Source of the DNA: Candidatus Nanohaloarchaea archaeon
GTDB taxonomy: Archaea > Nanohalarchaeota > Nanosalinia > Nanosalinales > Nanosalinaceae
Assembly: GCA_041639695.1 (NCBI GenBank)
Contig: JBEQBQ010000003.1
Coordinates: 12,505 to 65,398 of the forward strand
Direction: 5' to 3'
DNA: 52,894 bases
Position numbers and translations under genes: made by a program. The notes beneath the pieces were generated by a model. The model saw only the letters and a program-made list of their open reading frames with translations, did not search any database and was not told where the DNA came from. Shown here piece after piece: positions 1,811-46,135 of the stretch. Positions within the stretch are counted from its first letter, which is position 1. Each line of letters starts with the position of its first letter.

Positions 1811-1818
1811 TTTTGCTA

Positions 1819-3081: not shown

Positions 3082-3114
3082 GTAATCACATGGTTGAAAG
3101 CTCGAATATAAAAT

Positions 3115-5891: not shown

Positions 5892-5960
5892 GCTATTTAT
5901 GGGTTATTGTAATACGGTTTTCCGTAAAAGCTATAGTCCTAGCACAGAAAAGACAGCAGT

Positions 5961-6467
5961 ATGGCTCTCGAAAAACAGGTTATGGAACTTATACTCTCTC
6001 TAAGAACGCCAGTATTTAATGAGTTCTTCCAAGGTTTAACAGCTTTAGGAAGCACGGCATTCGCAATAGTTCTAATAGGCTTCCTCTACACCCGCAAAAA
6101 GAAGCTAGCTTACAGAACACTACTAGGATTCTCCCTCACAGGACTAATTGTGTATGGATTGAAGTTCAGTTTTGCTAGACCTAGGCCCACAATAGAATCA
6201 TTAGGAACTGCCTTCACTCAACACTCATTCCCTTCTGGCCACACCGCGACAGCGTTCGTACTCGCAACAATACTCTACACACGTTTTAAAACATACTATC
6301 TGTTTTTAGTTGCGGGCTTAGTAGGGTTCTCAAGAATCTATCTAGGTCTTCACTATCCGTCCGATGTAGTGGTTGGGGCTTTGATTGGAACCGGTTCAGC
6401 TCTTGTTGTAGAAAAGTTGTGGAAAACAAGTGGCTCCCGGGGATGGACGCTCCTCGAGGCCCAGTAA
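5961..6467 (+). CDS. PAP2-family membrane phosphatase
   Basis: KxxxxRPRP, SFPSGH, SRIYLGLHYPSDV. Confidence 0.92.
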   Translation: MALEKQVMELILSLRTPVFNEFFQGLTALGSTAFAIVLIGFLYTRKKKLAYRTLLGFSLTGLIVYGLKFSFARPRPTIESLGTAFTQHSFPSGHTATAFVLATILYTRFKTYYLFLVAGLVGFSRIYLGLHYPSDVVVGALIGTGSALVVEKLWKTSGSRGWTLLEAQ

Positions 6468-6690
6468 ACCTCCTCGAGTCTCAGGTCCGCCACCCTCCGA
6501 ACATACGCCTGACCGCTTAGGGCTGCTCCCGTCAAGGCCTGACCCGGTTCACGACCAAGAGTATCCCGGAGGACGGACCCTCAGCGAACCGAAGAGGGCT
6601 GAGTCCCGGGGAGACGCCGCTCCCTGGTTGACGGCTCCGGCATCACGAGGATTTCCGGACAGAGGCGACCCCAAGCCGCCCGGCCTGCCA
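6431..6690 (-). ncRNA. ffs: SRP (7S) RNA, ~260 nt
   Basis: GC-rich island. Minus strand begins UGGCAGGCCGGGCGG (archaeal Alu-domain start), contains the helix-8 signature GAACCGGGUCAGGCCUUGACGGGAGCAGCCCUAAGC, and ends CCCCGGGAGCCA, which pairs with the 5' UGGC. Confidence 0.9.
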
Positions 6691-6712
6691 TACCTGAGAG
6701 TGGAGGTGGGAA

Positions 6713-31535: not shown

Positions 31536-31558
31536 TTTTAACCCTAACATGTTGCATA

Positions 31559-31671
31559 CTGGCGGCCAAAGCGAAGGGGCAACGCCCGTACCCATCCCGA
31601 ACACGGAAGCAAAGTCCTTCAGCGATCTGACCGGTACTGCCTTACAGGCGGGAGATTCAGGACGCTGCCAG
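31559..31671 (+). rRNA. rrf: 5S rRNA (stand-alone)
   Basis: CTGGCGGCC...CCCGTACCCATCCCGAACACGGAAG..AAG...GTACTG...GGGAG...GCTGCCAG; ends pair. Confidence 0.93.
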
Positions 31672-31742
31672 ACTATTTTTCCACACTTTTCCCAGTTGAA
31701 CTACAACAACTAGTTAATATCTTCGAAACAAGAACTAGGAAT

Positions 31743-32606
31743 ATGGTAACAGCCTCAGGACTCAAGGCCAACCTGAAGATATTCGGACTTCTAACAATAC
31801 TTACAGGTATATTCATAGGTGTAGGATACGCTTTAGCAGGAACCGGCGGGATGATAATCGGACTAGTATTCGCCGGTTTGATGAACTTTGGGTCCTACTG
31901 GTTCTCCGACAAAATCGTTCTCAAAATGTATGGTGCCGAGGAAATAACCGAAGAACAGAACCCGGAGCTACACGAAAGACTGGGAAAACTGGCTGAAAAC
32001 GCCGGTATACCGAAACCCCGGCTTTACCGCTCATCGATGGATGTACCTAACGCCTTTGCTACAGGCAGAAACCCTGAGAAAGGAGTTGTATGCGTGACCG
32101 ATGGACTAGTAAACAACTTGGATAGTGATGAGGTTGACGGGGTTATAGCCCATGAGCTAGCCCACATCAAAAACAGAGATACTTTGATTAATGCATCAGT
32201 AGCCACTATCGCAGGAGCAATATCTATACTTGCGGAGATGGCTTTCTGGGGCGCCATGTTCGGAGGAGATGAGGACGGAGCAGAAATGGTTTCAGCTTTA
32301 GCATTCATGATCATAACTCCTATTATTGCCACGATTATCAGGATGGCGATCTCCAGAAAGATGGAGTACAGAGCAGATTCGGATGCAGTTAGAATTCACG
32401 GCCAGAAAGAAGGACTTAGTACCGCTCTCACCAAAATCCATGAGGAGGGGAAGAAGAAACCAACCAAGCACGTCTCAAAATCGCAGGAAGCAGGTGCAAA
32501 CCTGTTTATCTCAAACCCGTTCTCGTCTGACAAGTTGACGAAATGGTTCTCTACACACCCACAACTCGAGAACCGTATACAGAACATCGAGGCCACGAAT
32601 CTATGA
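31743..32606 (+). CDS. htpX: Zinc metalloprotease HtpX (M48)
   Basis: PNAFATGRNP, AHELAHIKNRD, SRKMEYRAD, FSTHP. Confidence 0.95.
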   Translation: MVTASGLKANLKIFGLLTILTGIFIGVGYALAGTGGMIIGLVFAGLMNFGSYWFSDKIVLKMYGAEEITEEQNPELHERLGKLAENAGIPKPRLYRSSMDVPNAFATGRNPEKGVVCVTDGLVNNLDSDEVDGVIAHELAHIKNRDTLINASVATIAGAISILAEMAFWGAMFGGDEDGAEMVSALAFMIITPIIATIIRMAISRKMEYRADSDAVRIHGQKEGLSTALTKIHEEGKKKPTKHVSKSQEAGANLFISNPFSSDKLTKWFSTHPQLENRIQNIEATNL

Positions 32607-33415
32607 GTGCGATGCCGCCGCTGAACCTGAACAAGAACGGTGACTGGAAACATCTCGAGGAAGCAGAAGACGTAACAGAACTTAACATCACGGATGCATT
32701 TGACTCTGTTAAAAGAACAAGGCTGCCTCAGGATGTTCCTGCTGCAACAAGAACCGAGTACGGTTTGAACGAAGCGAATACCGAGTTACTTCTTGACTAC
32801 GACTTCGAGAAACTTTCTGAGTCCGAAATGCTTAACGCATCTATCCATGAAGGGCTACATGCTTTAGATCATAAAGGAATATTAGAGGAGGAGCTTGAAT
32901 CTATAGGCGTTGATCCTGAAGTATCAAGCCATATTGATAGTTTAACTGATGGACCTCTAGAGGTAGAAGAAGGAACTATACAGGCTGTTTCTAACGCTCT
33001 GGATCCCAACGGCGGAAGTAACTATGCCTATCCCTATGAAACTCAAATGGTTGAAAGCTATCTAGAGCAAGAAGGAATCGATCTAGAATCAGAGCTTGCA
33101 GAAGATATTCAGGATACCAAGATGGATCTTGTTGATGAATACCGGGATGTCTATGCCCGGTTCTCGACGGACAACCTTTACTTCGAGGCAGGTTCTATTG
33201 GAGACCAAGAATATGGTGTGATGGCGATCGGCGATAACGCTGATGTCTATGGCGAAGAGATGGCTGATAGCATTGTCGAGGATATAGTTGAGAACTACGG
33301 TATTGAGGCCGAAGGATATAGTCCGGAAGAACAAGACTATGAAGAGGAATTGTTAGATGGTTCGGTATCTATGGAGGACTCTGAAAATCTAGGTTTGCAG
33401 CCGGCTGAAGTTTAA
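32603..33415 (+). CDS. Very acidic hypothetical protein with HExxH motif
   Basis: IHEGLHA...EEG; ATG at 32603 overlaps the htpX stop (ATGA). Confidence 0.65.
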   Translation: MSAMPPLNLNKNGDWKHLEEAEDVTELNITDAFDSVKRTRLPQDVPAATRTEYGLNEANTELLLDYDFEKLSESEMLNASIHEGLHALDHKGILEEELESIGVDPEVSSHIDSLTDGPLEVEEGTIQAVSNALDPNGGSNYAYPYETQMVESYLEQEGIDLESELAEDIQDTKMDLVDEYRDVYARFSTDNLYFEAGSIGDQEYGVMAIGDNADVYGEEMADSIVEDIVENYGIEAEGYSPEEQDYEEELLDGSVSMEDSENLGLQPAEV

Positions 33416-33429
33416 GAGAAGTAGAAATT

Positions 33430-34398
33430 TTATAGGGAGGAGTGTTCCCCTATGATAGCGCCTTCAAGGTCTTTATTCTCTACTTCTGCCTTTTGATCGA
33501 CGAGCGAGTCTCTGATCTCTGAATCAACGATATTTGCTTGAGGGAAGATTATCGAGTTTTCAAGCCTAGACTCTTTTACCTCGGCGCCGTCCATTACAAC
33601 TACGTTTTCACCTAATTCGGCGTTCTCTGTTTCTCCCCTAACTATGTTGCCGTCAACCACTTTTTCGGTGGCCTCAAGGTAGCCTCTCGGTGTTCCAACA
33701 TCGAACCAGTCTCCATCAAAGGAGAAAGCAAACATGGGTGTCTTCTGATGCGCCCATTCGATTAAACGTCCTGGCTCATCCAGGTACTGTTCCGCAGGCA
33801 CATCGGTCTGTTTGAAATGCTCTTCGTAGTCGTGGAAGAGAGAAACTTTGTCTTTGGGGAAGTAGTAGACTGCGATAGAAGCTAAAGTTGAAGGCGGTTC
33901 TTCCGGTTTTTCAACAAATCCGGCGATACGGTCTCCTTCTGTGTCAACGATTCCGAAGCTTGTAGCCAGCTTCTCGTCCTTCACATCGTATGTTACGTTG
34001 GCAGGAGCGTCTTTTTCTTTACAGAAATCTAGGAATTCAGATGTGTCGAAGCTGTAGAAGTTGTCGCCGCCGATAACAACCAGATCGTCATCGAGATCCA
34101 GGTCTTCCCGGTCAAGCATCTTAATGATGGCGCCGATTGTCCCGGGTTTTTCTTCTTCGCTTCCCTGTTCTTCGATTGCGACGGTTACGTTGTCTCTGTT
34201 GTACTCTTCGGCGTAGTCCTCGAAGTCTCCGGCAAACTTTCTGTTTGTGGAGATTATTACTTCGTCGATATCTTCGAGGTCTTCAAGTATGTAGTCGATT
34301 ATCGGTTTTTCTCCTAGTGGTAGAAGGGGTTTGGCCCTATGTTTGGTGATAGGCCAGAGTCGGGTGGCGTGTCCTCCCGCCAAGACAATAGCTTTCAT
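33430..34398 (-). CDS. Sugar-phosphate nucleotidyltransferase
   Basis: MKAIVLAGGHATRLWP...KPLLP, GGDN, FVEKP, WFDVG, C-terminal beta-helix repeats. Confidence 0.92.
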   Translation of the reverse strand: MKAIVLAGGHATRLWPITKHRAKPLLPLGEKPIIDYILEDLEDIDEVIISTNRKFAGDFEDYAEEYNRDNVTVAIEEQGSEEEKPGTIGAIIKMLDREDLDLDDDLVVIGGDNFYSFDTSEFLDFCKEKDAPANVTYDVKDEKLATSFGIVDTEGDRIAGFVEKPEEPPSTLASIAVYYFPKDKVSLFHDYEEHFKQTDVPAEQYLDEPGRLIEWAHQKTPMFAFSFDGDWFDVGTPRGYLEATEKVVDGNIVRGETENAELGENVVVMDGAEVKESRLENSIIFPQANIVDSEIRDSLVDQKAEVENKDLEGAIIGEHSSL

Positions 34399-34455
34399 AT
34401 TACGGTGTATTACTTCGGAGGTTTTTATTCGGTTCGGAAGAACAAACATATCTTT

Positions 34456-35400
34456 CTACTGCTTAGCTTTCTCGACTTCCTCAAGCAACTGGCACTTACG
34501 ACAGACCTTCGAAGAACAAGGCTCTCCGCAACGTTCACATTCTCTAAGCTGGTTCTCCTCAGAATCAAAATCCTTATGCTCATTAACAATATCGGAGATT
34601 TCACGTCCCTGAGAAACAATCGAGTGCTTGATGCCCGGCATCTCCGACTCTAAACGGTTCAAGAAACTCTTCATAATAGGTCTCAGAGAACCTTCTTCTA
34701 CGTGAGGACAACGATCAATAACACCTAGATCATGAAGCTTAGAATACAGAGCGATCTCCCTCTCCATCAAATCCTTCAACGGCTTAATCCTTTCAACGAA
34801 CTTGTCGTGGTCTACAGGATCTGAACCCGAGATTCTCGCCAACCTCTTCATGTCGCCTTTCACATGGTTCATCATGATGGCCTGGGCCTCATCATCCAGG
34901 TTGTGGCCGATAGCGATCTTATCCGCGCCAACCTCTCGGGAAAGCTTGTTCAAGAGATCTCTACGCATAATCCCGCAGTAGGTACAGTTCGACTTCTCAA
35001 GATTGTCGACAACATTCTCCATCCTCAAATCGTAATAATCTTCGTAACGTCCGATCTCAAGTTCAACATCCATCTCCTCGCACATCTCTTCCGCAGCTGA
35101 GATAGATTCGTTTCTGTACGGATCAATACCTTCATGTACTGCAACTGCAACGATCTCGATGTCAGGACGGTCGCCAAAGATTTCCACTAATTGTTGAAGC
35201 ATGACTGCCGAGTCCTTTCCTCCAGACAGGCCTACAGCAATAGTGTCGCCGGACTCCACCATGTCGTTCTTCCTGATCGTTCTCTTGATCTTCTTGTTGA
35301 CATCGATGGAGAAATGTTCCTGACAAAGTCCTCTTCCCTCGTACTCACGGAAAATCACTGTGTCCTTATCGCATTTTGCGCAGGTTTGCTCGTCGGTCAT
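34456..35400 (-). CDS. ncsA: tRNA 2-thiolation protein (TtuA/NcsA/Ctu1 family)
   Basis: CxxC...CxxH, SGGKDS, CTYCGIMRR, GHNLDDEAQ, CP, CxxC...CxxC. Confidence 0.88.
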   Translation of the reverse strand: MTDEQTCAKCDKDTVIFREYEGRGLCQEHFSIDVNKKIKRTIRKNDMVESGDTIAVGLSGGKDSAVMLQQLVEIFGDRPDIEIVAVAVHEGIDPYRNESISAAEEMCEEMDVELEIGRYEDYYDLRMENVVDNLEKSNCTYCGIMRRDLLNKLSREVGADKIAIGHNLDDEAQAIMMNHVKGDMKRLARISGSDPVDHDKFVERIKPLKDLMEREIALYSKLHDLGVIDRCPHVEEGSLRPIMKSFLNRLESEMPGIKHSIVSQGREISDIVNEHKDFDSEENQLRECERCGEPCSSKVCRKCQLLEEVEKAKQ

Positions 35401-35480
35401 ATCCAACCCTTTGGAATGAAGTTTTAAGTCGGCTTTAGTTGAGGAGCAAAAACTTAAGTGAAAACACGCCATTTCGGTAT

Positions 35481-36347
35481 ATGGAAGATAAAATAGAGAG
35501 ATTAATCGAAGAAAAAGTTGAGGAAAGAGTTAAGGAGGAAAGAGAGAGATTGAAGTCGGAAATGAGAGACATTCCTTTAGAGGATAAACGCACAGGCCAA
35601 TTCTCTCGTCGAAGTTTTCTCAAGAAGATCGGTGCGGGAGCCATAGGTATAGGTGCATTAAGTTTAGCGCCTGCATCTGGGCTGAAACTGACCAAAAATG
35701 GAATTTATGATTCCGGTGTAGAGCGCAAACTGATGCAGGAGGGAACGGATTCTGGTAAGCCCTCAGCTGGCGTTAAAGGAAGATACTACTATGCTAAGGA
35801 TGTGAATTTGCTTTACCGGGATAATGGTAGTTCTTGGGAGGTTGCGGCAGGAACTGGCACCACTTCGAGTCCTGTGCCTGTGGAAAACGTTCAATCCCTT
35901 TCTTCAGAGAAAGCCTCTATAACGAATGAAACGCTGATTCGGTTCTATCCGGAATCCGACACCTCGCTTTCCGCGGGTTCTTGGACGAACATGCCAGTAG
36001 GAACTGTGGAGGCTGATGAACTAGGCGAAGTTGATGCCGCTAATAATAAAATCAATCTTAACTCATCCGGTTGGAGACTGGTTGTAATAAGTGCGCGTTT
36101 TGATTCGCCCTCAGATAATGATGCTCTTGGGATGAAGATACAGAATCTCGATACCTCTAAATCTTTCAGACTTAATCAGCCTACAGCGGCAGGTTCAAGA
36201 ATAAATATCTATTCTTTTGCAACACTAGTAAACTTGCCTGCTGGCACAAATATCGCCATCCAGGTGAGAAATAAGCATAACTCGGATACTTTGCGATCGA
36301 ACGAGACTCAGACATATGTAGAGATCAGAGACATGTTCAGAAGTTAG
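35481..36347 (+). CDS. Fibre/adhesin-like protein: coiled-coil leader, internal twin-arginine segment, phage-fibre-like motif, C1q-like head
   Basis: MEDKIERLIEEK...FSRRSFLKKIGAGAIGIGALSLAPASG...GTDSGKPSAGVKGRYYYAKDVNLLYRDNGSSW...C-terminal beta-sandwich. Confidence 0.6.
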   Translation: MEDKIERLIEEKVEERVKEERERLKSEMRDIPLEDKRTGQFSRRSFLKKIGAGAIGIGALSLAPASGLKLTKNGIYDSGVERKLMQEGTDSGKPSAGVKGRYYYAKDVNLLYRDNGSSWEVAAGTGTTSSPVPVENVQSLSSEKASITNETLIRFYPESDTSLSAGSWTNMPVGTVEADELGEVDAANNKINLNSSGWRLVVISARFDSPSDNDALGMKIQNLDTSKSFRLNQPTAAGSRINIYSFATLVNLPAGTNIAIQVRNKHNSDTLRSNETQTYVEIRDMFRS

Positions 36348-36354
36348 AACCTAT

Positions 36355-37005
36355 TTAGTTGCTGACAATCTCCACTACTTCGTCAAGTTGCTCTGCCTCG
36401 TAAGTTGGATCTGTCTCGGAGTAGCCGTTGTAGTCAACGTGTATGGAGTCGATTCCAGCATTTTCAGCCGCCACGATATCGTCGTCCGAGTATCCTACCA
36501 TCACAGGGTTCTCCGCGTCAACACGTTTTATTATCTCCTTGATCATGGTAGGCCTCGGTTTTTTCCGGGAAATATAGTTTTCTAGACTTGAGAGTTGAGG
36601 TGATTCGATACTGTGAAAATAGTTCTTGATATCAAAGTGTTCGAGCGTGAACTTTGTGGCTTTCCACGGCGCATTAGATGCCAAAGCCTTTGTGGACTCG
36701 ATAGAATTAAGCACGTTCTTAGTATGTTTGCAGAGCCCGATCTCACCGTTCCTCATCATCTCGATCTTCCTGTCCGCGATCTTATTCTCCATCTCAATAA
36801 TCTCGTCACTGGTTAGACCGGTGTTTTTCGTGAACCTGTCTAACTGCTTCATGGAATCTATCTCGACAAGGTCTCTCGCTTCTTCAATAGAAATATTTTT
36901 GCCGTGCTGTTCCGCTACCTTCACTCGGATCTTGTCAGCCCATCTGAAGTCGCCTGAGTCGAGTAGAACTCCGTCTTTGTCGAAAATGACTGCGTCGTAA
37001 CCCAT
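36355..37005 (-). CDS. HAD-superfamily hydrolase
   Basis: VIFDKDGVLLDS, ASN, KKPRP, MVGYSDDDIVAAENAG. Confidence 0.88.
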   Translation of the reverse strand: MGYDAVIFDKDGVLLDSGDFRWADKIRVKVAEQHGKNISIEEARDLVEIDSMKQLDRFTKNTGLTSDEIIEMENKIADRKIEMMRNGEIGLCKHTKNVLNSIESTKALASNAPWKATKFTLEHFDIKNYFHSIESPQLSSLENYISRKKPRPTMIKEIIKRVDAENPVMVGYSDDDIVAAENAGIDSIHVDYNGYSETDPTYEAEQLDEVVEIVSN

Positions 37006-37068
37006 CCAAGAAACGAGGCGACTTGAACGATTATAAGCTTTCCCTAACTTTTTGCTTATGTATACGTT

Positions 37069-37157
37069 GCCGGCGTGGCAGAGTCTGGTTGAACGCGGCA
37101 GATTCGAGATCTGCTGGCCCATACGCGGCCTCCCCGGTTCAAATCCGGGCGCCGGCG
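37069..37157 (+). tRNA. tRNA-Ser(CGA)
   Basis: GCCGGCG/CGCCGGC acceptor, G73, GCAGA-TTCGAGA-TCTGC, long variable arm. Confidence 0.95.
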
Positions 37158-37228
37158 ACGCCTTTCCCTTGTACCTATTTTTCTCCGAGTTACTTAGGTT
37201 TTTTTATCAGGCTCTCTCATTCAGTTTC

Positions 37229-38143
37229 ATGGGTTTAGAAAGTAGAATCGAAGAACTTGTAGAAAGGGTCGATCAACTAGAGAAGAAAAATAGGGATTTA
37301 GAGGAAGAAAATAATCGGATAAAACAAGATTACAGAAAGATTAAGCAGGAGAACAAACAGATCAAAGCTAAATTGTTTGGAAGGAACTCCTCAAAAAATG
37401 GCAACAAAATTTCTCGCAGAGGTTTTCTGAAGAAGCTTGGTGTGGGTGCTGCTGGTCTTGGTGCTTTCGGTCTAGCATCAGCCTCAGGTCTGAAGCTTAC
37501 CAGGAACGGTATTTCGGGTAGCTCTGGTCTTGATTTCTTGGATTCGGGCTCTGAGTATTTTTCCTTAAGTTCTGGAGGCCCTTTAAAGCTGAATTCTGTT
37601 GACTTGGATTTATCGGGTAATACTATTACTGATTCAACGCAGGACTACCTCGACTTAACCGGCGACGGAAACAACGTTCGAATTGGAACAGGACAGGCGA
37701 TCGAGGATGGGAGCGGTTTCGGTCGTGTTGAAATACTTAGTAACGGGTCGTATCTTCATGGTGAAGGCGGTTCAAAGGATAACAGTCTAGGACTCAAGAA
37801 TGAGTCAAAATCGTATCTACGAATGGGGAAGAATGACTTCGATTTTATCGATAGAAAGGGTAGTTTTAGCGCATTTAAATATTACTCCTCGTCCTCAGCC
37901 CCCGGCACGCTGGAACTGACGAACGCGAGGTTGTATTCCACAGAAAACAACATCGTATATGAGGGAACGGGATTTGAAACTGGTTTTAGATTGTTTAATC
38001 GTTCTACGTCTAGTGCTACACCCACAGTTAATTTTGAAAATGATGACACTACAGGTACAGCCCGCCTGTGGGGTAAAGTGCAAAATGGAACTATGGAAAT
38101 TCTTGCCGAAGATGGAGATGGAAATACCACTACTATAAGTTAA
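37229..38143 (+). CDS. Second fibre/adhesin-like protein with coiled-coil leader and internal twin-arginine segment
   Basis: MGLESRIEELVERVDQLEKKN...ISRRGFLKKLGVGAAGLGAFGLASASGLKLTRNGI followed by a G/S/D/N-rich beta-strand region; ORF track start overlaps tRNA-Ser. Confidence 0.6.
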   Translation: MGLESRIEELVERVDQLEKKNRDLEEENNRIKQDYRKIKQENKQIKAKLFGRNSSKNGNKISRRGFLKKLGVGAAGLGAFGLASASGLKLTRNGISGSSGLDFLDSGSEYFSLSSGGPLKLNSVDLDLSGNTITDSTQDYLDLTGDGNNVRIGTGQAIEDGSGFGRVEILSNGSYLHGEGGSKDNSLGLKNESKSYLRMGKNDFDFIDRKGSFSAFKYYSSSSAPGTLELTNARLYSTENNIVYEGTGFETGFRLFNRSTSSATPTVNFENDDTTGTARLWGKVQNGTMEILAEDGDGNTTTIS

Positions 38144-38662
38144 TACCTTACCCAACAACCTGAACATCATTAAGTGGGGATCACTACCGTTCGCAGCAAT
38201 AAATATCCTTACTCATAGAGAAGAGAAAGTTTCAGACAGGAATTACGACCCTAGATAGCAAATCGTGAACTAGTCGACTTCGAGTGTTGAGGGACGGTCC
38301 TCAGCAACTGGCCCGCTAAACGTCTAAGTGGGGGCCCGAGAAATGATACGGGGTTTCGCCCCTAATTCAAACGGTTTCAGAATTGAAGATGGTGGAGATG
38401 TTGTGGCATGGGTTCAGCAGGTAACCAAACTACCTTGACATAAACTGATTGAACTTAGTAATGATCTCTGTCGGTGAAGTCACAGCTATCTGGCTCGATT
38501 TTAGTCTTTTCTCAATAAGGAAGAACAATATTTCGGATCTCTTATCGGTTTGAAGCAGAACCTCCGGTGAATGGCCGGTCGATGATAGTTATACGAGCAT
38601 TTCACTTGATGTGAGATGTACCCCCTGATCTGGAGCTAGAAAGAAGCATTAGTTGAACTACG

Positions 38663-39340
38663 TCATAAGAACCTTGGAACTTCCTCCATATAATCGCTGT
38701 ACCCATCGACTTCTTCTCGAACTTCTTCCTCCTCCTTTAAAGCAGCTCTATGGTAGACGAAGAGCAGGATCGGAAGCATGATTGTTGTCAATAGTGTCGG
38801 CCATCCTATGAACCATCCTATCACGATTAATGAAATTCCTATGTACTGTGGATGCCGAGAGTAAGAGTACACTCCGGATGTAACGAGTTCTTCATCGCTT
38901 GTGTAGAGTTGGTACCAGCCTATAGAGACTATAGCTGCTCCTATACCTGTTATTGCTAGTCCTATTAGCATCCAGAGGTTTAATCCGAAGTAGATTCCTA
39001 GTGCGGTGAACTCGAAGAGGTATGCCGGTGTCTGGGTTGCGGAGCCTAGACCGGAAGTAAGGTAAAGTGTCAAGGGGATACCATACATTTCAACGAATAG
39101 AGAGACTATGAATGCGGCGTATATTCCGTGGGAGCTCCAGTCGGTTTTGTGCCGGTACCTCAAAGGTATCAGGAAAAGCAGGAACCCTATAATACTAAGA
39201 GCGACCAGATCCCAGCGTTGCTGTATAACAACTAGGTTTTCAACCCTTCCGGTCATTAAGGCGAGGTAGTGTTGAAGAAATGCTGGGAGTGCTATCAGAC
39301 AAACGAGTGCTATTAATGCTCCAAGGATTTTCCTCTTCAT
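38663..39340 (-). CDS. Isoprenylcysteine carboxyl methyltransferase-family membrane protein
   Basis: AFIVSLFVEMYGIPLTLY, LVTSGVYSYSRHPQY, EE...Y..Y...VPRF. Confidence 0.88.
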   Translation of the reverse strand: MKRKILGALIALVCLIALPAFLQHYLALMTGRVENLVVIQQRWDLVALSIIGFLLFLIPLRYRHKTDWSSHGIYAAFIVSLFVEMYGIPLTLYLTSGLGSATQTPAYLFEFTALGIYFGLNLWMLIGLAITGIGAAIVSIGWYQLYTSDEELVTSGVYSYSRHPQYIGISLIVIGWFIGWPTLLTTIMLPILLFVYHRAALKEEEEVREEVDGYSDYMEEVPRFL

Positions 39341-39551
39341 ATCTAGGCGTGTTGTAGTTTCATTCAAATAGGTTTATCAGCGATAAGTATTGTTTCAAAA
39401 CAACGATTTCTTAATCTTCCATTCTTGCGGTTGTCAGGGTTCTGAAGCCCTAAAACAAACCGTTTAAGTAAGAGAGGGCCTTCTTCTACCCGTTGTTTGA
39501 GCAAAACCTGAAGTAAAGCCGGGCGACCGGAAATCAGGGAGGTGACAAATT

Positions 39552-40013
39552 TTGAAGAGAAAGATCTTGATAGGCCTTATCGCAGTAGGCATGGTAGGAA
39601 CCGTAGCAGCATCAAAGAAAGGGATGAGTTTTGATGACAGCTTCTTCAGCGATTCGGAAAAAGACTTTTTCAGCGATGATTTCGAGGAGAATTTCTTCGA
39701 GGACGACTTCTTTGAAGAAGAGTTCTTCGACAAGAAATCAAACAAGTTGAGCTTCATGAAGACTTCCACCAGTTCAAGCTTTGAGAAAAGCTCAAGCTCC
39801 AGCACCAAGGAGTACAGCATGAAGGATCAGAAAACCAGCTCTACGAAAGACTCCTGGTCCAGCAAAGAATTCGAGAAGGACATGAAGAAAGATGACAGTA
39901 ATGAAACAAAGGAAGACAAGCAAATGAAGGAAGAAGAGAGCAAGGAAAAAGAACAGGAAAGCAAAGAGAAAGACGAGAAGGAGGATGAAAAATACAACAA
40001 GGACGACAAGTAA
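39552..40013 (+). CDS. Secreted low-complexity protein (F/D/E block, S/T block, K/E block)
   Basis: Signal peptide MKRKILIGLIAVGMVGTVAAS; GGAGGTG then TTG start; downstream terminator. Confidence 0.7.
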   Translation: MKRKILIGLIAVGMVGTVAASKKGMSFDDSFFSDSEKDFFSDDFEENFFEDDFFEEEFFDKKSNKLSFMKTSTSSSFEKSSSSSTKEYSMKDQKTSSTKDSWSSKEFEKDMKKDDSNETKEDKQMKEEESKEKEQESKEKDEKEDEKYNKDDK

Positions 40014-40018
40014 GGGTT

Positions 40019-40047
40019 CCGGCATAGAGGCCGGCTTTTTCTCTTTC
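40019..40047 (+). terminator. Hairpin plus pyrimidine tract
   Basis: CCGGC-ATAGAG-GCCGG followed by CTTTTTCTCTTT just after the stop codon. Confidence 0.55.
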
Positions 40048-40200
40048 TTACTAGAGGAACTTTGCATGGTTGTATAATCCCTCAATATTGGTTTTTTGAG
40101 GAATTTAGGGACTGAAAGAATCCGTATAAATTCAGGAAGCCTCAAGATCTACTGTCCTTTCCCAAAACCCTTTAACAACCATTAATGGAGGTGAAAAAAT

Positions 40201-41211
40201 TTGAAGAAAAAGCTAGTATTGGCCTTTACCACAATTGGTCTCGTTGCGTCAAGCTCCGCATTTGTCAACTTTGATTCAAGCTTCGGAGACTTCGATACAT
40301 CGATTGATTTCGAGGATTCTGACGAGAACGAAAGCTTCTGGGACAACGGAGACTTCTGGGACGATGACTTCTTCGACGACTCTGAAGACGAAGAAGATAC
40401 TGAAAACAACACCGAACAGCCTGGGTGTCAGGAAGGAGAAGTCCATATACCTGAGGATCAGGACTGTGACGGCGAGATCGACGACCGGTTCAGATCCAAT
40501 AACTCTGAAGACTCCGAAAACGAGTCTGAAGCAGGAATCTGTGTGATCGGTGTCGACAGCCCATGTAACTCGGAAGAGTACGATGGCGACAACGAATCCT
40601 ACGAATCTGAAAACGAGGCCGAAGTTGAAGAGAGGCATGTCACTCCCGCACCTGAACCCGAGGCTGCAGGCGAGAACTGGATCTCGTACCCGAACCCGAG
40701 AGACCACGTACTGAACTATGACACGATCAACGACCACGGCGACATCAAAGTATGTACAGTACTGCTCAACCAGAACGACCAAGTAATCACAGGAGAATCA
40801 GTTAACGTAGAATTCTCTGTAGACACTAACATTTCCGAAGGTGTTTCGGAGTACACCGACTCAAATCCTGTCAGGTTCGACACGCCTTTGAACCAGGTAG
40901 CGGATCTAGTAGGCACTTCGGACGAATACCGTGAAGGCGATGGAATGCTCGACGCAGAATGCGCCGAGTACCATAATCTTCCGTTCGGAACCTACACTTA
41001 CAGCAACATGACTGTTTCAGGTGAAGACTCCGGGCAGGTCGAAGTAGTCGGCCTTACCGAGTACTGGGACGACAGGCCTGAAGGCAACCCCTTCAACCTT
41101 GATCTGAACAGTTATGGGGAGAACAGGCTTTCCGACGGAGTACTGAGAATAACTCCCGATGAAGACAACAACCACGCAGAAGTTATTTTCGTTGCAAAGA
41201 TTGAAGCCTAG
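40201..41211 (+). CDS. Secreted acidic Cys-containing protein
   Basis: Signal peptide, F/D-rich block, DQDCDGEIDD and CVIGVDSPCN motifs, beta-rich C-terminus; GGAGGTG then TTG start. Confidence 0.75.
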   Translation: MKKKLVLAFTTIGLVASSSAFVNFDSSFGDFDTSIDFEDSDENESFWDNGDFWDDDFFDDSEDEEDTENNTEQPGCQEGEVHIPEDQDCDGEIDDRFRSNNSEDSENESEAGICVIGVDSPCNSEEYDGDNESYESENEAEVEERHVTPAPEPEAAGENWISYPNPRDHVLNYDTINDHGDIKVCTVLLNQNDQVITGESVNVEFSVDTNISEGVSEYTDSNPVRFDTPLNQVADLVGTSDEYREGDGMLDAECAEYHNLPFGTYTYSNMTVSGEDSGQVEVVGLTEYWDDRPEGNPFNLDLNSYGENRLSDGVLRITPDEDNNHAEVIFVAKIEA

Positions 41212-41386
41212 TACCCCGGTATTCTTCTTTTCTCTTTTTTAGAAAGAGTTTCTGGATACATTATTGTTTGTCCAGATCTATTTAGGATGCATACGTCAGC
41301 TGAAAATCTATTGAGCGCGTCCGGATAAAGTTTTTACGAGCCGCTTCACCCACAATTTTTAAGTGCTACTTGACAATAACAAAGAC

Positions 41387-41662
41387 ATGGCTGCAGGAAA
41401 CCATGATTACAACCAAGACGACTCGGATATTTATTCAAGTCCATTAACTGAGCCGTCAGTATATGCCGAACCTATACTGATGACTGAATACGGCGCTGCT
41501 GGAGGAGCTATAGGTGGCGCGGCCTCCGGAGGAGAGGGTGCGGCAGTCGGGATAGTAATAGGAGGATTCCTTGGATACGTACACGGAATGGCCGATCATG
41601 GTAAAGGACTAGGAAGCAAACAGGCAGCATGGATCAAAGATGTCCTGACAGAGGAAGAATAA
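41387..41662 (+). CDS. Small glycine-zipper protein
   Basis: YGAAGGAIGGAASGGEGAAVGIVIGGFLGYVHG. Confidence 0.6.
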   Translation: MAAGNHDYNQDDSDIYSSPLTEPSVYAEPILMTEYGAAGGAIGGAASGGEGAAVGIVIGGFLGYVHGMADHGKGLGSKQAAWIKDVLTEEE

Positions 41663-41715
41663 GTAACTAAGGCGTTTTTACTTAATTATTGCTTCTATAT
41701 GATTATTAGGAGATT

Positions 41716-42486
41716 TTATTTAGCACCTCTTACGATCTGACTGTACTTCATCAACCCTACAAAGACCGCTCCCCCTATTGCGTTCCCGATAGTGGCGAGT
41801 GAGAGGAACGAAATGTAGTCGGTTAAGCTAATGCTGGGTGATGTAAACAGTCCGAACAGCACTTCCACGTTACCTGCTATGGGGTGTGGGAGGTGTAGTA
41901 TTCCGATAGTTGCTGTTACGATCCAGATTATGAAAACCCTGCTCAGTGTTTCCTGTGCGGCAGTTATTAGCCATGCAAGCAAGCCCATCAACCATCCTGC
42001 GAACATCGCGGCGATTAGCAGCCAGTGAAGATTGTGGCACACCAGTTTGAGTGCGATGGTCTCGAAAGCTGCGGGACTAACTACGTCAAGACCTGGCATC
42101 AGAAGCACAGCTAGACCTGTAAATATGGCTCCTCCTACTATGTTACTGGTGAATACGATGCCCCAGAGACGTCCAGGTTTTTTCATGGATGCCTTTCCGT
42201 CAAGAACCGGTATCACTGCCAAGGTGTTGTGCTCAGTAAACAGCTCGGAACGTCCAAGAACCACAAGGATGAAGCCTACGGCGTAAGCGCTCATAATCAG
42301 TAATTCGGTTCCCAGATCGCCGTAGCTCCCGGCCGAAAGGGTAAGTATCACGCCCATAAGCAGCGGCCCGAAACCTATGTCAAGTCCTGCCTAAAGCCCT
42401 GAGATGAAAAGTCCGTCACCGTCCCTGTTCAGCTCGTGGGCTCTCTTTTCTATCATCGAGTCAAGGACTTCACGGGTTGGCTTCAT
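41716..42486 (-). pseudogene. Formate/nitrite transporter (FNT) family gene interrupted by an in-frame TAG
   Basis: MKPTREVLDSMIEKRAHELNRDGDGLFISGL*AGLDIGFGPLLMG...GRSELFTEH...GNAIGG; TAG at 42393-42391 (codon 32). Confidence 0.82.
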
Positions 42487-42621
42487 AAGTTCGAAAGTTT
42501 AGAAAACTGCTTCTTTTCAATTTCCTATACTGGTTTGGCGGCGTACCGGTTGTTTCTGCTCTAAAATCACTCTCTTTGTTGTCGATTAATAGTAATAAAA
42601 GTTTATGTCTACTATAGTTGT

Positions 42622-43827
42622 ATGGCTGATCACTACAGCGTAAATGTTGGGTGGGACAAACCTATACCTCTAAATGATGTCCTAGAATATCTGGAGAAAG
42701 TGGATGAAGAGTCTAGTTTTTCTCCAGAATTCAAAGATCCGCAGTTCAAGGATCAAATAGATTCGATAGTTACGACAGGAGACGGCAACTTCGTAAAATA
42801 CGGGACAATCGTATTCAAACCTGAAATAGGGTCAAGAAATAGGAGATCGGGCTCAGCCGGCATAGTAATGCAGATAGATGGAGACTCCCCAACCAATAAC
42901 ACCGAACTATACATTTACTCGACTTCGAGCAAGTACGATGATCACGTTGACCAGATGGCTGAGACATGGACTCCGGAAAGCTCCAAAGATATAATTACTA
43001 GAGAAGATATCGGGGGATACGAAGAAGAGATGGAAACAGTATGGAACAACGTAGTTAGGCCTATTGAGAATCCGAACCTCTTCAGGAGCGCTGGATACGA
43101 ACCAGACGGAGTTATACTCTACGGACCTCCGGGCACCGGAAAATCGATGATAGCAAATGCTGCTGCAAACGAGGCAGGTGCCGAACTCATAGAAATTCAA
43201 CCTGATGAGATATTTGGCAACTTGGTTGGAGATTCCGAACAAAACGTAAAGGAACTCTTTGAATACGCCAGAGAAAACACGCCTTCCGTGCTACTGATGG
43301 ATGAAATCGACTCTCTGACCAGTGAAAGATCAGAAAGCGACGATGGCGTAGAAACCAGAGTAAAAAATATGATACTAAGCGAGACACAGGACTTAAGCAG
43401 CAACCTAGACATACAAATGGTGGGAACCACCAACAGACTTGAAGCATTAGATTCAGCCTTCCTAAGGCCGGAAAGGTTCGGAACACATGTTAACATCGGT
43501 GAGCCTGGAGAGGAGGCAAGAAAGGAGATATGGAAAGTTCATACACGGCTTCCGGGGGAAGAGTCTGAGGACGTGCCTGTAGAGGCAGAAATAGACTACG
43601 AAAAGTTAGCAGCCGAGTCAGAAGGTCTTGTCGGCGCTGACATCAGGAATATGCTCTACGATGTTATGAGCGAAAATATTGCCGAGGTGTCGAGTTCAGT
43701 CGAGAACTTCGATGAGGCTAGGTTTGAAGACCATGCAGATGATCTCAGAATTACTGAAGAAGAACTACTAGATATACTGGAAGAGGATGAAGACAGCAGT
43801 CCTTCAGGTAATATTGGCTTTAACTAG
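42622..43827 (+). CDS. Single-domain AAA+ ATPase (CDC48/PAN clade-like) with unrecognised N-terminus
   Basis: DIGG, GVILYGPPGTGKS, LLMDEIDS, TTNRLEALDSAFLRPERF, GADI. Confidence 0.88.
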   Translation: MADHYSVNVGWDKPIPLNDVLEYLEKVDEESSFSPEFKDPQFKDQIDSIVTTGDGNFVKYGTIVFKPEIGSRNRRSGSAGIVMQIDGDSPTNNTELYIYSTSSKYDDHVDQMAETWTPESSKDIITREDIGGYEEEMETVWNNVVRPIENPNLFRSAGYEPDGVILYGPPGTGKSMIANAAANEAGAELIEIQPDEIFGNLVGDSEQNVKELFEYARENTPSVLLMDEIDSLTSERSESDDGVETRVKNMILSETQDLSSNLDIQMVGTTNRLEALDSAFLRPERFGTHVNIGEPGEEARKEIWKVHTRLPGEESEDVPVEAEIDYEKLAAESEGLVGADIRNMLYDVMSENIAEVSSSVENFDEARFEDHADDLRITEEELLDILEEDEDSSPSGNIGFN

Positions 43828-44085
43828 ATGAATTTATAGATGGGGTTGGCTCACGATCTAAGCTGTAGTTGATTTGCTTGATACAGTAATTGGCTTTATG
43901 AAGTCTGAAGGAATTGAAGAGCTTGGTTGGGCTAAAAAAGAAACTCCTGTAGCCGGAAGAGATAAATTGGCAGGTCTCAAGGAGTTCAAAAAGTTCAGAG
44001 AAGGTTAAGCTGACGGTTATTTCTATGGCTGTCTTAAATCTAGAAACTTTAAGCAGAAGATTTTTGGTTTAGATTCGATAGATGG

Positions 44086-44853
44086 CTACTCGTCTTTCTC
44101 TAGATTGAAGCTTTCGTCCGGAGGTGTCTGCATCATGTCTGTCGGTATTGCAATATCTGCTTCTTCCTCGTTCTCCTGAACCCATTTGTCCGTTACTGTT
44201 ACCTCCTCGACTATTTTCACTATACCTGTTTCAACGCTTAGCACGTATTTTTCCGGAGCGCCGGGGTTAAGCTCAAACTTGTTCTCTGGAGTTCTTCTAA
44301 ACCTGGGGGTGATATCAGAGTTTAGGTCCGATTTTCTGATCTCTTGCGTCATGAAAGTTTCAACGTCCCTGGGTTCTGCATCATAACCGAATCCATTCAG
44401 ATACATGCAAAGCTCTTCTGAATCCAGAGGTCTGTCATTAGGATTGAACTTATCTCTGCAGTAAGATGAGGTCAAACCGTGTCTCGATGAAGTTACATCC
44501 CCCAGCGCAAGCAAGATTACGTGTGAAGGGTCTAACCAGATATCTTCGACTTCTTCCAAGTCCTTTTTCAAGTTGCCGTAAATTTCCTCCGGAATGAGTT
44601 CAGAGTCCTGTTCTATCCCGGTAATGTCAGTTCTTTCGTAAAACTCTCTATCCGCCAGTCTGTGGGACGGAACCTCTCCCTCATAGTAATCTAGGTATTC
44701 AACCTCATCAGTATAGTCGTCATGGTTGACAAAATCAAATTCTTCTTCATCCATAAGTGCGCCTAGACGCATCACCTGGCTCATCGAAACTCCGTACTCA
44801 TCCGCTATTTCACTCATCCTATGAGGTGTAGACATCAAGCCCGTATTCATCAA
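44086..44853 (-). CDS. Acidic hypothetical protein
   Basis: 255-aa ORF, possible N-terminal HTH (MSEIADEYGVSMSQV). Confidence 0.7.
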   Translation of the reverse strand: MMNTGLMSTPHRMSEIADEYGVSMSQVMRLGALMDEEEFDFVNHDDYTDEVEYLDYYEGEVPSHRLADREFYERTDITGIEQDSELIPEEIYGNLKKDLEEVEDIWLDPSHVILLALGDVTSSRHGLTSSYCRDKFNPNDRPLDSEELCMYLNGFGYDAEPRDVETFMTQEIRKSDLNSDITPRFRRTPENKFELNPGAPEKYVLSVETGIVKIVEEVTVTDKWVQENEEEADIAIPTDMMQTPPDESFNLEKDE

Positions 44854-44898
44854 GAAACTCTTTAATCTGCTAGGTAGTATTTTGAGAATCCTAGAGAG

Positions 44899-45999
44899 CT
44901 ATGGGGATAAGTAATTAGCAGGACCCGGAACTGAATTTTCTGGTCGATACAGCCGAACTTTGTTAGGTGATTCTTTGACTCCTTTTTGGTCTTCAGGCCA
45001 TCTTTTCCAGTAAAAGTCTGCATCGGGACCATGTTCCATTAATTCTATTTCTTCCGGCATATGGTCGTCAAAAACCACTCTACCTTCATCTGGATTGCTC
45101 CATCCTAAAAGCGTTACTTCGAGATATGCTCCTTCCTCAGAACTGAGCGAATCAATAATATTAGTAGTTCTTTCTGAATCAACGTAATCAAAAACATTAT
45201 TGAAAAATATGGCGTCGTATTCACCAGAAGCATTTCTTACATCCTCTATTCTTATATTATCTACAGCGGAAAAGCTATTAACATCTTTAAGTACCTCTTC
45301 CCAGTTATAACTGGCTTTACCGGCATCTGATAGCGTTAATCTATCTGGCCCATCTTCTCCAACGCCCTCTATTAAATGTGCCCAGGTCACATCATCCTCA
45401 TGTTCTTTAGAGTGGTTTTTGAGTTCTCTAATTCGGTGTAATGATTTTTCACTATCCAAGTTCTTTGCACCCAACTTATCCAATAGTATTTCGGAAAAGC
45501 TAAACTCTGGCTCTTCTCTTTCAAATTCGGACTCATATAGTATGTCTTCCGCAAATCCATAATCATGGTTCCACCAGTTCGAACTAGCAAAATCCTGATG
45601 TTGTTTAATATTATTGTTTAAATCCTCTCGGTCAATTCCTATAGCTTCTAACTCGGTTCGATAATTCCAAGTATGTAATACCCCATTTTCAACTTCTGCG
45701 CTATAATCGAAAAGCTGTGCTTTGACTTCGTCTTGGTTATAGCCTTGGGCAAACTGGTGTGAGACAAAAGCCTGTAGGTATGCTGTCAGAGGATTTCTTT
45801 CTACAACATCTACATCGGCTTCAGGATGGTCGTCTTTGAAGTCATGAGCGTACATGGTGCCTCCGACAAAGAGGACATCTGAATTCTCGTAATCCAGACC
45901 GTCCTCTTCAAAAATATCTGCTACATCTCTGAAGTAGGGAAGGTGCTGATTAGGATAAACATATACATTATCTTCATCAGCAAAATGTTCCTCATTCAT
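44899..45999 (-). CDS. Hypothetical protein, possible class I SAM-methyltransferase fold
   Basis: DVLFVGG, VDVVERN, EDVRN, YDAIFFNNVFDY; AT-richer codon usage. Confidence 0.55.
   Translation of the reverse strand: MNEEHFADEDNVYVYPNQHLPYFRDVADIFEEDGLDYENSDVLFVGGTMYAHDFKDDHPEADVDVVERNPLTAYLQAFVSHQFAQGYNQDEVKAQLFDYSAEVENGVLHTWNYRTELEAIGIDREDLNNNIKQHQDFASSNWWNHDYGFAEDILYESEFEREEPEFSFSEILLDKLGAKNLDSEKSLHRIRELKNHSKEHEDDVTWAHLIEGVGEDGPDRLTLSDAGKASYNWEEVLKDVNSFSAVDNIRIEDVRNASGEYDAIFFNNVFDYVDSERTTNIIDSLSSEEGAYLEVTLLGWSNPDEGRVVFDDHMPEEIELMEHGPDADFYWKRWPEDQKGVKESPNKVRLYRPENSVPGPANYLSP
44913..44935. repeat. Degenerate direct repeat of the tRNA-Pro 3' end (att-like)
   Basis: AATTAGCAGGACCCGGAACTGAA versus AATTGGCAGGACCCGGATTTGAA at 46692-46714 (20/23 identical). 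Confidence 0.7.
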
Positions 46000-46135
46000 G
46001 TTGTTACTTTATAATTGCAACAATAAAAGCATTACGGTGCGAAACTTTTCAACCACTTTAATATTTTAGTAGAAACAAGGATACAGAGATTCTGAAGCAA
46101 GTCCTAAACAAGTCCTCGGGACAGTCAGGAATCAT

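Follow-up and report, generated by a model that had tools for sequence, protein, structure and literature searches.

We analysed a stretch of 52,894 nucleotides (the window) from the genome of a Candidatus Nanohaloarchaea archaeon (GenBank assembly GCA_041639695.1, contig JBEQBQ010000003.1, positions 12,505 to 65,398 of the forward strand). Two neighbouring forward-strand genes in the window encode predicted substrates of twin-arginine translocation (Tat) whose C-terminal parts resemble viral tail fibres. Gene 1 (P0001, 288 amino acids; 35481-36347) encodes a charged, helical leader (residues 1-40; 35481-35600), a block shared with gene 2 (residues 41-75; 35601-35705), a beta-hairpin stalk and neck (35745-35927) and a C1q/TNF-like head (residues about 150-288; 35928-36344). 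Gene 2 (P0002, 304 amino acids; 37229-38143) encodes a leucine-zipper-like leader (residues 1-60; 37229-37408), the shared block (residues 61-95; 37409-37513) and a mature fibre part of the myovirus tail-fibre type (37514-38140). Between them lie a HAD-hydrolase gene on the reverse strand (36355-37122) and, immediately 5' of gene 2, a forward-strand tRNA-Ser(CGA) gene (37068-37159; ARAGORN; Rfam tRNA, 47.1 bits). We show that both genes belong to a large paralogous family that combines one N-terminal module with exchangeable C-terminal parts.

The two proteins share an N-terminal module. Residues 1-75 of P0001 align with residues 3-95 of P0002 at 43% identity (BLASTP, E 1e-17); the next best segment reaches E 0.38, and the C-terminal parts are thus unrelated in sequence. 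The module opens with a charged helix of about 40-60 residues; then come the Tat signal SRRxFLKK, whose predicted cleavage site has small residues, and a conserved first strand, SGLKLTxNGI. In gene 1 these elements read SRRSFLKK, a Gly/Ala-rich h-region, APA/SG and LKLTKNGI, and in gene 2 SRRGFLKK, an h-region, ASA/SG and LKLTRNGI (slashes mark the predicted cut). AlphaFold2 (AF2) models the leaders as helices over residues 2-29 of P0001 and 3-55 of P0002, the latter with a predicted local distance difference test score (pLDDT) above 90. TIGR01409, a curated Tat-signal model with a cut-off of 16.7 bits, matches both proteins. P0002 exceeds the cut-off in hmmscan (22.1 bits) and in a search of the whole genome (25.6 bits), while P0001 falls just under it in hmmscan (16.6 bits) and passes it in the genome search (20.9 bits). 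The first-pass annotation of this DNA had proposed that two nearby genes share a block of about 35 residues behind a charged leader, that the sequences after the block are unrelated, and that SRRxFLK is a Tat motif, all of which these comparisons bear out. Its phrase “internal twin-arginine segment” calls for a qualification: the arginine pair lies at residues 43-44 of P0001 and 63-64 of P0002, not at the extreme N-terminus behind a short basic n-region, and the segment is better regarded as a Tat signal whose n-region is helical, extended and probably removed by cleavage.

The shared block has been retained over a long period. The consensus of 17 aligned copies is ISRRSFLKKxGAGAAGLGAxGLASASGLKLTxNGIS. 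Across the 66 pairs formed by 12 paralogues, the block has a median DNA identity of 66%, and identical residues are specified by the same codon in 35% of cases. Between P0001 and P0002, the 35 codons of the block comprise 10 that are identical, 15 with synonymous and 10 with non-synonymous differences. Such low codon identity behind a conserved peptide indicates that selection, rather than recent duplication or gene conversion, keeps the block. The resemblance is well beyond chance and, by this codon measure, the paralogues are old.

The end of the signal has the appearance of a cleavage site. Small residues at -1 and -3 are conserved after the h-region, often with a proline (ASA/SG, APA/SG), and the equivalent sites in other genera read SPASA/L and PSVSA/Y. 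As read from these alignments, the pattern is that of a signal peptidase I substrate, and the genome has two genes for archaeal signal peptidase I (TIGR02228). Furthermore, one homologue (C7:21681-22808, E 3e-15; reverse strand, 4802-5893 of locus L006, C7:16880-25584), which adjoins a Tat-type member of the family (C7:20880-21584), lacks both leader and twin arginine and has a short hydrophobic signal, with its predicted cleavage site immediately before the common conserved strand (AVKITSDNVYKNG). From the site pattern and this homologue, we infer that leader and signal are a removable pre-sequence, and that their removal would expose the SGLKLTxNGI strand as the mature N-terminus.

The first-pass annotation had allowed that the true starts might lie just before the twin arginine, which would make these proteins ordinary Tat substrates. 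The family as a whole speaks for long leaders instead. In 24 of the 30 family genes, at least 39 residues separate the first ATG from the twin arginine, and 41-62% of these residues are charged; the leaders of P0001 and P0002, with charge in the same range, are helical and net acidic. Most members have no ATG, GTG or TTG near the twin arginine, and in many the 20 or more codons that precede it contain none. In P0001, by contrast, an internal ATG lies 15 codons 5' of the twin arginine, and in P0002 a TTG lies 14 codons 5' of it; a short form may exist for these two individually, but the family-level evidence favours the long form. The leader of P0001 and its closest counterpart (C5:50166) are identical in all but one of their first 17 residues, while their first 24 codons differ by seven synonymous and six non-synonymous changes; three further pairs behave alike. 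A TTTWW[ATC] box lies 19-40 nucleotides 5' of the leader ATG in 13/23 long-leader genes, compared with 5.5% of random 22-mers, and before a hypothetical start six codons 5' of the twin arginine in 0/23. Gene 2 has a TATA-like box (TTTTTTATC; 37200-37208, forward strand) at -29 to -21 of its ATG. Relatives in other genera have in-frame charged leaders of 36-69 residues, among them a protein of Ca. Nanohalobium constans whose sole annotation reads [quoted passage not shown]. As judged from codon changes and upstream boxes, the long leaders are translated and under protein-level selection. The leader of gene 2 also gives sub-threshold matches to ZapB and bZIP coiled coils.

The tip of P0001 is, with confidence, predicted to be a C1q/TNF jelly roll. 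The AF2 monomer has a pLDDT of 82.6 and a predicted TM-score (pTM) of 0.60, with the head above a pLDDT of 90. When searched with phmmer against 1.84 billion representative sequences (E<=1e-3), the mature part yields 507 matches, which divide into two modules. The first is a hairpin unit of about 45 residues (GKPSAGVKGRYYYAKDVNLLYRDNGSSW) that forms the stalk and recurs as many as 14 times within giant proteins. This unit adjoins a Phage Tail Collar domain in P0035, matches phrog_19068 (E 1.7e-7) and is the only portion of the mature part with tblastn matches among named phages (13 mycobacteriophage records, E 9e-5). The second module is the head of about 150 residues. Two of its homologues score above the 23.7-bit cut-off of the Pfam C1q model (PF00386), P0059 with 36.4 bits and P0045 with 24.2 bits. 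A profile of 51 head sequences, compared with the sequences in the PDB, reaches the Eiger TNF at E 5e-4 and a C1q-related factor at E 0.018. Among 10 head homologues that were looked up, one is a hypothetical protein from a metagenome-assembled genome labelled “Deltaproteobacteria bacterium”.

Structural comparison places the same head among viral fibre knobs. Foldseek matches the P0001 model to 398 PDB chains at E<=1e-3, and the top matches include the spike knob of phage phi812 (E 5e-8), TNF ligands and cyanophage short tail fibres. The match to C1QL1 (4d7y) has a TMt of 0.81 and a root-mean-square deviation (rmsd) of 2.9 over 142 columns, in agreement with the C1q-like head named by the first-pass annotation. 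In a library of viral structures, the model matches R4TKF4 of Halorubrum tailed virus 4 (HRTV-4; TMt 0.73), a virion component of HSTV-1 (rmsd 2.0 over 143 columns) and many tail fibres designated “C1q domain”. The relationship to HRTV-4 is also detectable in sequence, with gp60 matching P0001 at E 2e-6 (BLASTP).

Gene 2 carries a different module, which has viral counterparts in the tail-fibre position. Its mature part contains the unit (N/D)(V/L)R(I/L)xTGQAIEDGSG ... SSSAPGTLELTNA and a C-terminal strand, GNTTTIS. Homologues of P0002 (26 at E<=0.001) carry this unit as DLRLxTGQAIEDGxG ... SSSAPGTLELTNA, and alignments show it conserved in 27 homologues; those named by taxon are nanohaloarchaeal, and the remainder are metagenome proteins, some without the Tat header. 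An IMG/VR search with a seven-row alignment found relatives in four loci, of which L028 and L029 look like one locus. In L026, L027 and L029, the P0002-type gene comes directly after two baseplate genes, one of them for the wedge (phrog_6) and the other matching phrog_1160. Going by this gene order, relatives of P0002 occupy the tail-fibre position in three distinct myovirus loci. Residues 126-304 of P0002 align with the L027:2791-4254 protein to its final residue (E 1e-20, 34% identity over 160 residues), which bears out an earlier impression that the motifs downstream of the block recall viral tail fibres. The Baseplate J proteins of the viral loci are 79% identical to that of Halobacterium phage phiH and 51% identical to that of Halorubrum tailed phage 7 (HRTV-7). 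A wide search of P0002 with VIA-align matched the leader helix alone, to generic coiled coils (Z<=5.9), and the top scores for residues 85-304 in the ESM Atlas (0.85) fall in viral “hypothetical protein” clusters, which serve as leads only. Beyond the Tat models, Pfam and NCBIfam scans of P0001 and P0002 return only sub-threshold coiled-coil families. A longer open reading frame (ORF) for gene 2, starting at 37052, is spurious because it runs through the overlapping tRNA-Ser(CGA) gene.

P0001 and P0002 are two of about 30 such proteins in a genome of 0.97 Mb. The composition (45% G+C, acidic proteins), together with the homologues, puts the assembly (38 contigs, 89% complete) among the Nanohaloarchaeota. 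A regular expression for the block finds 12 copies among its six-frame ORFs. A hidden Markov model built from these raises the count for the 971 kb to 30 ORFs (E<1e-3); an independent profile search finds 29. Together they amount to about 7,200 codons, or some 2% of the genome, and encode proteins of 200-410 residues. All TIGR01409 matches above the cut-off anywhere in the genome (29/29) are family genes, and the three other ORFs with a twin arginine, detected only at E>0.1, have short N-regions. The genome encodes TatC (PF00902, 184.3 bits) and TatA (PF02416, 44.1 bits) in adjacent genes on contig C2. One member of the family, the ORF beginning at C2:41480, stands about 100 bp behind tatC; another four are no more than 5 kb from it, and the tatAC pair has members on both sides. 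This cluster (C2:37480-45791) also holds several short or start-less family ORFs, such as C2:41480-41791 with 104 codons and no ATG, which may be decayed copies.

The mature parts of the 30 copies are diverse. They fall into nine BLAST groups: a mosaic group of 19, one of three, one of two and six singletons. Both leader types are mixed within these groups. The first-pass annotation had envisaged a modular paralogous family, and one N-module on 30 copies with nine groups of tips agrees with this. One paralogue (C13:29361-30503) matches PHROG tail-fibre families (phrog_1980 at E 5.8e-9, and another at E 3.5e-7) and ends in a Peptidase_S74-like segment (20.5 bits, below the cut-off of 22) that keeps the Ser...Lys spacing of the SDxxxK motif of S74 chaperones (PMC10769870). 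A Pfam scan finds no S74 chaperone in P0001 or P0002.

The surroundings of both genes are cellular. The 10 neighbouring ORFs that were scanned (31743-43827) include seven with a Pfam match (M48 peptidase, NTP transferase, TtuA, HAD hydrolase, PEMT/ICMT methyltransferase, formate/nitrite transporter and AAA ATPase), three without a family and none that is viral. Elsewhere, family copies sit singly amid core genes, which include eIF1A, RIO kinase, NMD3, thermosome, SRP54, FtsY, prefoldin, ribosomal proteins, Trk, a class I aminoacyl-tRNA synthetase and eRF1. No Baseplate_J match was found in the 89% complete genome, and no defence genes were seen beside family copies. The first-pass annotation had likewise seen no viral structural genes nearby, and its proviso that the family might be confined to proviruses is answered by the housekeeping neighbours and the missing Baseplate_J.

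Comparison with a congener shows rapid gain and loss of family genes. The same-genus genome G064 is 99% complete, and its sequence on either side of the two gene positions matches the source genome at 77-89% identity. Gene 1 is missing there, the HAD and TtuA genes being only 28 bp from each other, and the place of gene 2 is taken by two genes unrelated to it. The insertion junctions of gene 1 relative to G064 show weak GAAGTT microhomology and nothing more. Across the phylum (70 genomes), a block match occurs in 17 genomes and tatC in 20, with both present in 14; a block lies within 5 kb of tatC in 9 of these 14. The block profile was trained on copies from the source genome, so that block counts elsewhere are lower bounds.

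Two candidate modes of movement were considered and rejected. A mobile cassette is not apparent, as the 200 nucleotides upstream and downstream of the 30 genes contain no conserved sequence and a sole match, one 18-nucleotide pair. Integration at the tRNA gene was likewise set aside: positions 34000-46000 contain no att-like repeat, and a tRNA gene lies within 200 bp of 2/30 family genes, compared with 4.1% of random intervals.

The window and genome hold several further features. An independent assembly from a public sequencing run is unbroken across 34900-36454 and 37128-38800. Word depth in the public run rises from about 10 to about 1,100 across the tRNA-Ser gene (36996-37257), because short contigs of other organisms carry the same tRNA sequence. 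The TtuA-like tRNA thiolation gene on the reverse strand (34456-35472) is probably called 24 codons too long, since its G064 orthologue starts MTEEQTCAKCD, corresponding to an ATG near 35400; the shorter gene leaves a divergent promoter region of about 80 bp in common with gene 1. Downstream of gene 2, about 520 bp (38144-38662) contain no ORF of at least 50 residues and no Rfam family at the gathering threshold; the slot in G064 that corresponds to this stretch carries an 86-residue and a 241-residue membrane-protein gene. Two forward-strand genes (39552-40013 and 40201-41211) encode an N-terminal hydrophobic signal followed by very acidic, Ser/Asp/Glu-rich low-complexity sequence, without a Pfam family. 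The window also contains an archaeal signal recognition particle RNA (6428-6695, reverse strand; 120 bits) and a solitary 5S rRNA gene (31558-31673, forward strand; 68.6 bits). On contig C2 (locus L004, C2:18810-27868), three tandem reverse-strand genes at 1329-3165 of the locus have N-termini like archaeal type IV pilin signals (MKRKGITPVIAVVLLLL...). These have no Pfam match, lie directly 3' of the family member C2:22810-23868 and adjoin the thermosome gene.

The family, the anatomy of its module, the Tat machinery, the folds, the viral homology, the cellular context and the rapid gain and loss are most consistent with Tat-exported, probably trimeric fibres built from viral tail-fibre parts, with swappable receptor-binding tips, that most likely serve as host adhesins. 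We give this reading a probability of roughly 0.6. The interchangeable shafts and tips would come from a stock that also supplies haloarchaeal tailed viruses with their tail fibres. The fibres would fold, and probably trimerise, in the salty cytoplasm, while the charged helix of 40-60 residues would remain cytoplasmic as an extended n-region. The twin-arginine signal would be recognised by the TatA and TatC of the genome, the folded fibre would cross the membrane by this route, and the signal would most likely be cut by signal peptidase I, leaving the SGLKLTxNGI strand as the mature N-terminus. Outside the cell, the fibres would bind surface structures, most likely those of a haloarchaeal host, and thereby act in attachment and as determinants of host range.

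Several lines of evidence fit these steps. The first-pass annotation had inferred oligomeric surface fibres with a constant export module and variable receptor-binding tips for host recognition, and its proviso that no fibre fold might be predicted is countered by the jelly-roll tip of P0001, by the paralogue with the S74-like end and by the viral tail-fibre slot of the P0002 module. The fibres are probably trimeric because, to our knowledge, the C1q/TNF fold is known solely as trimers, and because S74 chaperones act on trimers. The latter is described for the S74 chaperones of Bdellovibrio fibres (PMC10769870). Tat would suit such cargo, being a route for folded and oligomeric proteins that “salt-in” halophiles favour (PMC9765267, PMC13673990). 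Nanohaloarchaea are described as living on haloarchaea (PMC9765267), and the nearest named relatives of the tip-sharing viruses infect Halorubrum, Halobacterium and Natrialba. Attachment to host cells is the most economical function because the tips are common to viruses related to haloarchaeal ones. Possible roles for the leader are to register three chains before export, to delay targeting until the fibre has folded or, if the signal is uncut, to act as a cytoplasmic anchor. The first is attractive, though speculative, given the three-fold TatBC receptor described in a review (PMC13673990). In an extended and, as a whole, improbable version of this mechanism, TatAC would in effect be a dedicated fibre exporter, because the family accounts for all 29 detectable Tat signals; the leaders, as a new functional element of a Tat signal, would zip three precursor chains in register, and the trimeric fibre, assembled beforehand, would present three signals simultaneously to a three-fold TatC receptor complex; tips captured from viruses of the haloarchaeal host would set the host range, and an arms race over the receptors that viruses use would drive gain and loss between strains.

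Other observations weigh against host adhesion by exported fibres. Export, cleavage, trimeric state, surface retention and target are all deduced, and no recognisable anchor was identified that could keep a fibre at the cell surface after cleavage. For the viral contigs, hosts are assigned from Baseplate J similarity alone. P0001 itself has no Pfam C1q match at E<=1, its link to that family running through its homologues and its fold. For P0002, the AF2 monomer is poor (pLDDT 66, pTM 0.30), Foldseek finds nothing in the PDB at E<=1e-3 with this poor model, and the mature part has no tblastn match among 50,697 named phage records. Two relatives with C1q heads, P0058 and P0071, have ordinary short Tat signals; the long leader is therefore dispensable for export of such cargo. 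G064 has tatC and yet only two block matches, compared with 29 in the source genome. Finally, the block is present in only 17 of the 70 genomes, and the family is therefore not a general host-attachment device of nanohaloarchaea.

The topology of the fibres could differ from that proposed above. If the Tat signal were left uncleaved, the h-region could anchor the fibre while the coiled-coil leader stayed in the cytoplasm, giving type-II anchored trimers like class III/V Tat substrates and TNF ligands. This would explain both retention on the cell and the conserved, structured cytoplasmic helix, and a review lists uncleaved N-terminal and internal Tat signals, including that of FecR with its cytoplasmic N-domain (PMC13673990). 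We nevertheless consider it unlikely. The h-region is short and Gly/Ala-rich, with a Kyte-Doolittle mean of about 1.3 over 19 residues in P0002, which is below that of usual anchors; the small residues at -1 and -3 and the proline of the c-region are conserved; and in the paralogue whose short signal looks cleavable, the mature part begins with this same strand. A cleavage-type signal without a recognisable anchor would also suit soluble release, and the proteins might then be secreted decoys or competition factors, that is, released viral tips that mask receptors of the host or of the cell itself and so block viruses or rival symbionts. The homology of the tips to viral tail-fibre parts and the fast gain and loss between congeners are compatible with such a conflict system. 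That 30 proteins which otherwise differ have a conserved strand at the mature N-terminus, however, suggests docking to a common cellular element, as has been argued for the conserved end of the mosaic adhesive trimer (MAT) fibres of Bdellovibrio (PMC10769870), and no defence genes were seen beside the copies, which makes release as decoys decidedly improbable.

Two further explanations concern what the proteins are for and whether they are cellular at all. They could be general envelope or nutrient-binding proteins, such as lectins or S-layer accessories, with no part in partner specificity. C1q/TNF-like domains also act as lectins (BC2L-C is among the Foldseek matches) and nanohaloarchaea use host polysaccharides (PMC9765267), but 30 paralogues with nine unrelated groups of tips and strain-level turnover are atypical of housekeeping proteins, and the homology is to tail fibres rather than to S-layer proteins, so that this function is very unlikely. 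The tail-fibre homologies and the tRNA gene beside gene 2 could also point to provirus or tailocin-like parts or remnants, and the ATG and TTG codons 15 and 14 codons before the twin arginines to ordinary Tat substrates with over-extended starts. Both ideas are already largely refuted, and we give them very little credence. The genome has no Baseplate_J match and the genes no viral neighbours; no repeat was found at the tRNA, with tRNA adjacency at 2/30 compared with 4.1%; and a Tat signal is incompatible with virion assembly in the cytoplasm. Over-extension is contradicted by the paralogues, most of which lack a start codon near the twin arginine, and by the apparent protein-level selection on the leaders.

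The closest analogue among cell-encoded fibres is the MAT family of Bdellovibrio bacteriovorus, as described by Caulton et al. 2024 (PMC10769870). Both are large paralogous families in cell-attaching organisms (21 members there and 30 here), both combine a conserved end behind a signal peptide with diverse, swappable C-terminal tips, and both include phage-tail-fibre-like parts and TNF-like tips. An S74 chaperone is present in 13/21 MAT fibres, and an S74-like end that scores below the cut-off in 1/30 proteins here. The family described here differs in being archaeal, in using Tat export rather than a general signal peptide, and in having a helical leader of 40-60 residues before the signal. 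Its conserved mature part spans about 10-40 residues, compared with a domain of about 130, and its proteins are much shorter (200-410 residues). Surface display has been demonstrated for MAT fibres (PMC10769870), whereas the present family is known from sequence; the resemblance is one of analogy, not membership.

The family also shares parts with viral and Tat proteins. The P0002 module or the P0001 head occurs in haloarchaeal tailed viruses (phiH-, PhiCh1- and HRTV-7-like myoviruses, HRTV-4 gp60 and HSTV-1). In the cellular proteins, the viral N-terminal domain for baseplate attachment (phrog_33574) is replaced by the leader, the Tat signal and the SGLKLT strand, and the genes are solitary and cellular and encode no virion tail. 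With canonical Tat substrates (TIGR01409/PF10518), they have in common the SRRxFLK consensus, the weakly hydrophobic h-region, the A-x-A-type site, TatA and TatC, and a “salt-in” halophilic organism. In contrast to these, the twin arginine lies 43-64 residues in, behind a structured, net-acidic helix instead of a short basic n-region. Tat prediction rules that demand a twin arginine near the N-terminus would miss such proteins. Class V Tat substrates such as FecR have a folded globular cytoplasmic domain and an uncleaved internal signal (PMC13673990), whereas the N-terminal part here is modelled as one helix, followed by a signal of cleavable appearance.

The head itself is predicted to have the ten-strand jelly roll of the C1q/TNF superfamily (PF00386; BclA_C; TNF ligands), with a TMt of about 0.8 to C1QL1 and C1q. 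Compared with animal C1q/TNF proteins, there is no collagen stalk, and the kinship is with viral fibre knobs rather than with animal proteins. The layout is similar to that of type-II TNF ligands, which have an N-terminal cytoplasmic segment, a hydrophobic segment, a stalk and a C-terminal head. The kinds of element are already known, as Tat substrates and as cell-encoded adhesins resembling tail fibres. New here are the census of 30 copies, the finding that the family accounts for 29/29 Tat signals, the C1q head, the homology to proteins in the myovirus tail-fibre slot, the evidence from synonymous sites and the presence and absence relative to a congener. A search of open-access papers and bioRxiv (supplements excluded) found neither this family nor a helical leader ahead of a Tat signal described.

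The details of host recognition by DPANN archaea are said to “remain unknown” (PMC11329633). The family provides a concrete and numerous set of candidates for this process, with tips that can be tested for binding to haloarchaea, and the cultivated relative Ca. Nanohalobium constans carries homologues (P0018). For the Tat field, it is a natural family with a long, conserved, acidic helix before the twin arginine that accounts for every detectable Tat signal in a genome. The Tat system of some nanohaloarchaea has been called “likely inactive” (PMC10266531); in the source genome, by contrast, it has an obvious clientele. The archaeal parallel to MAT fibres suggests that viral receptor-binding parts are recruited again and again by cells that live on others.

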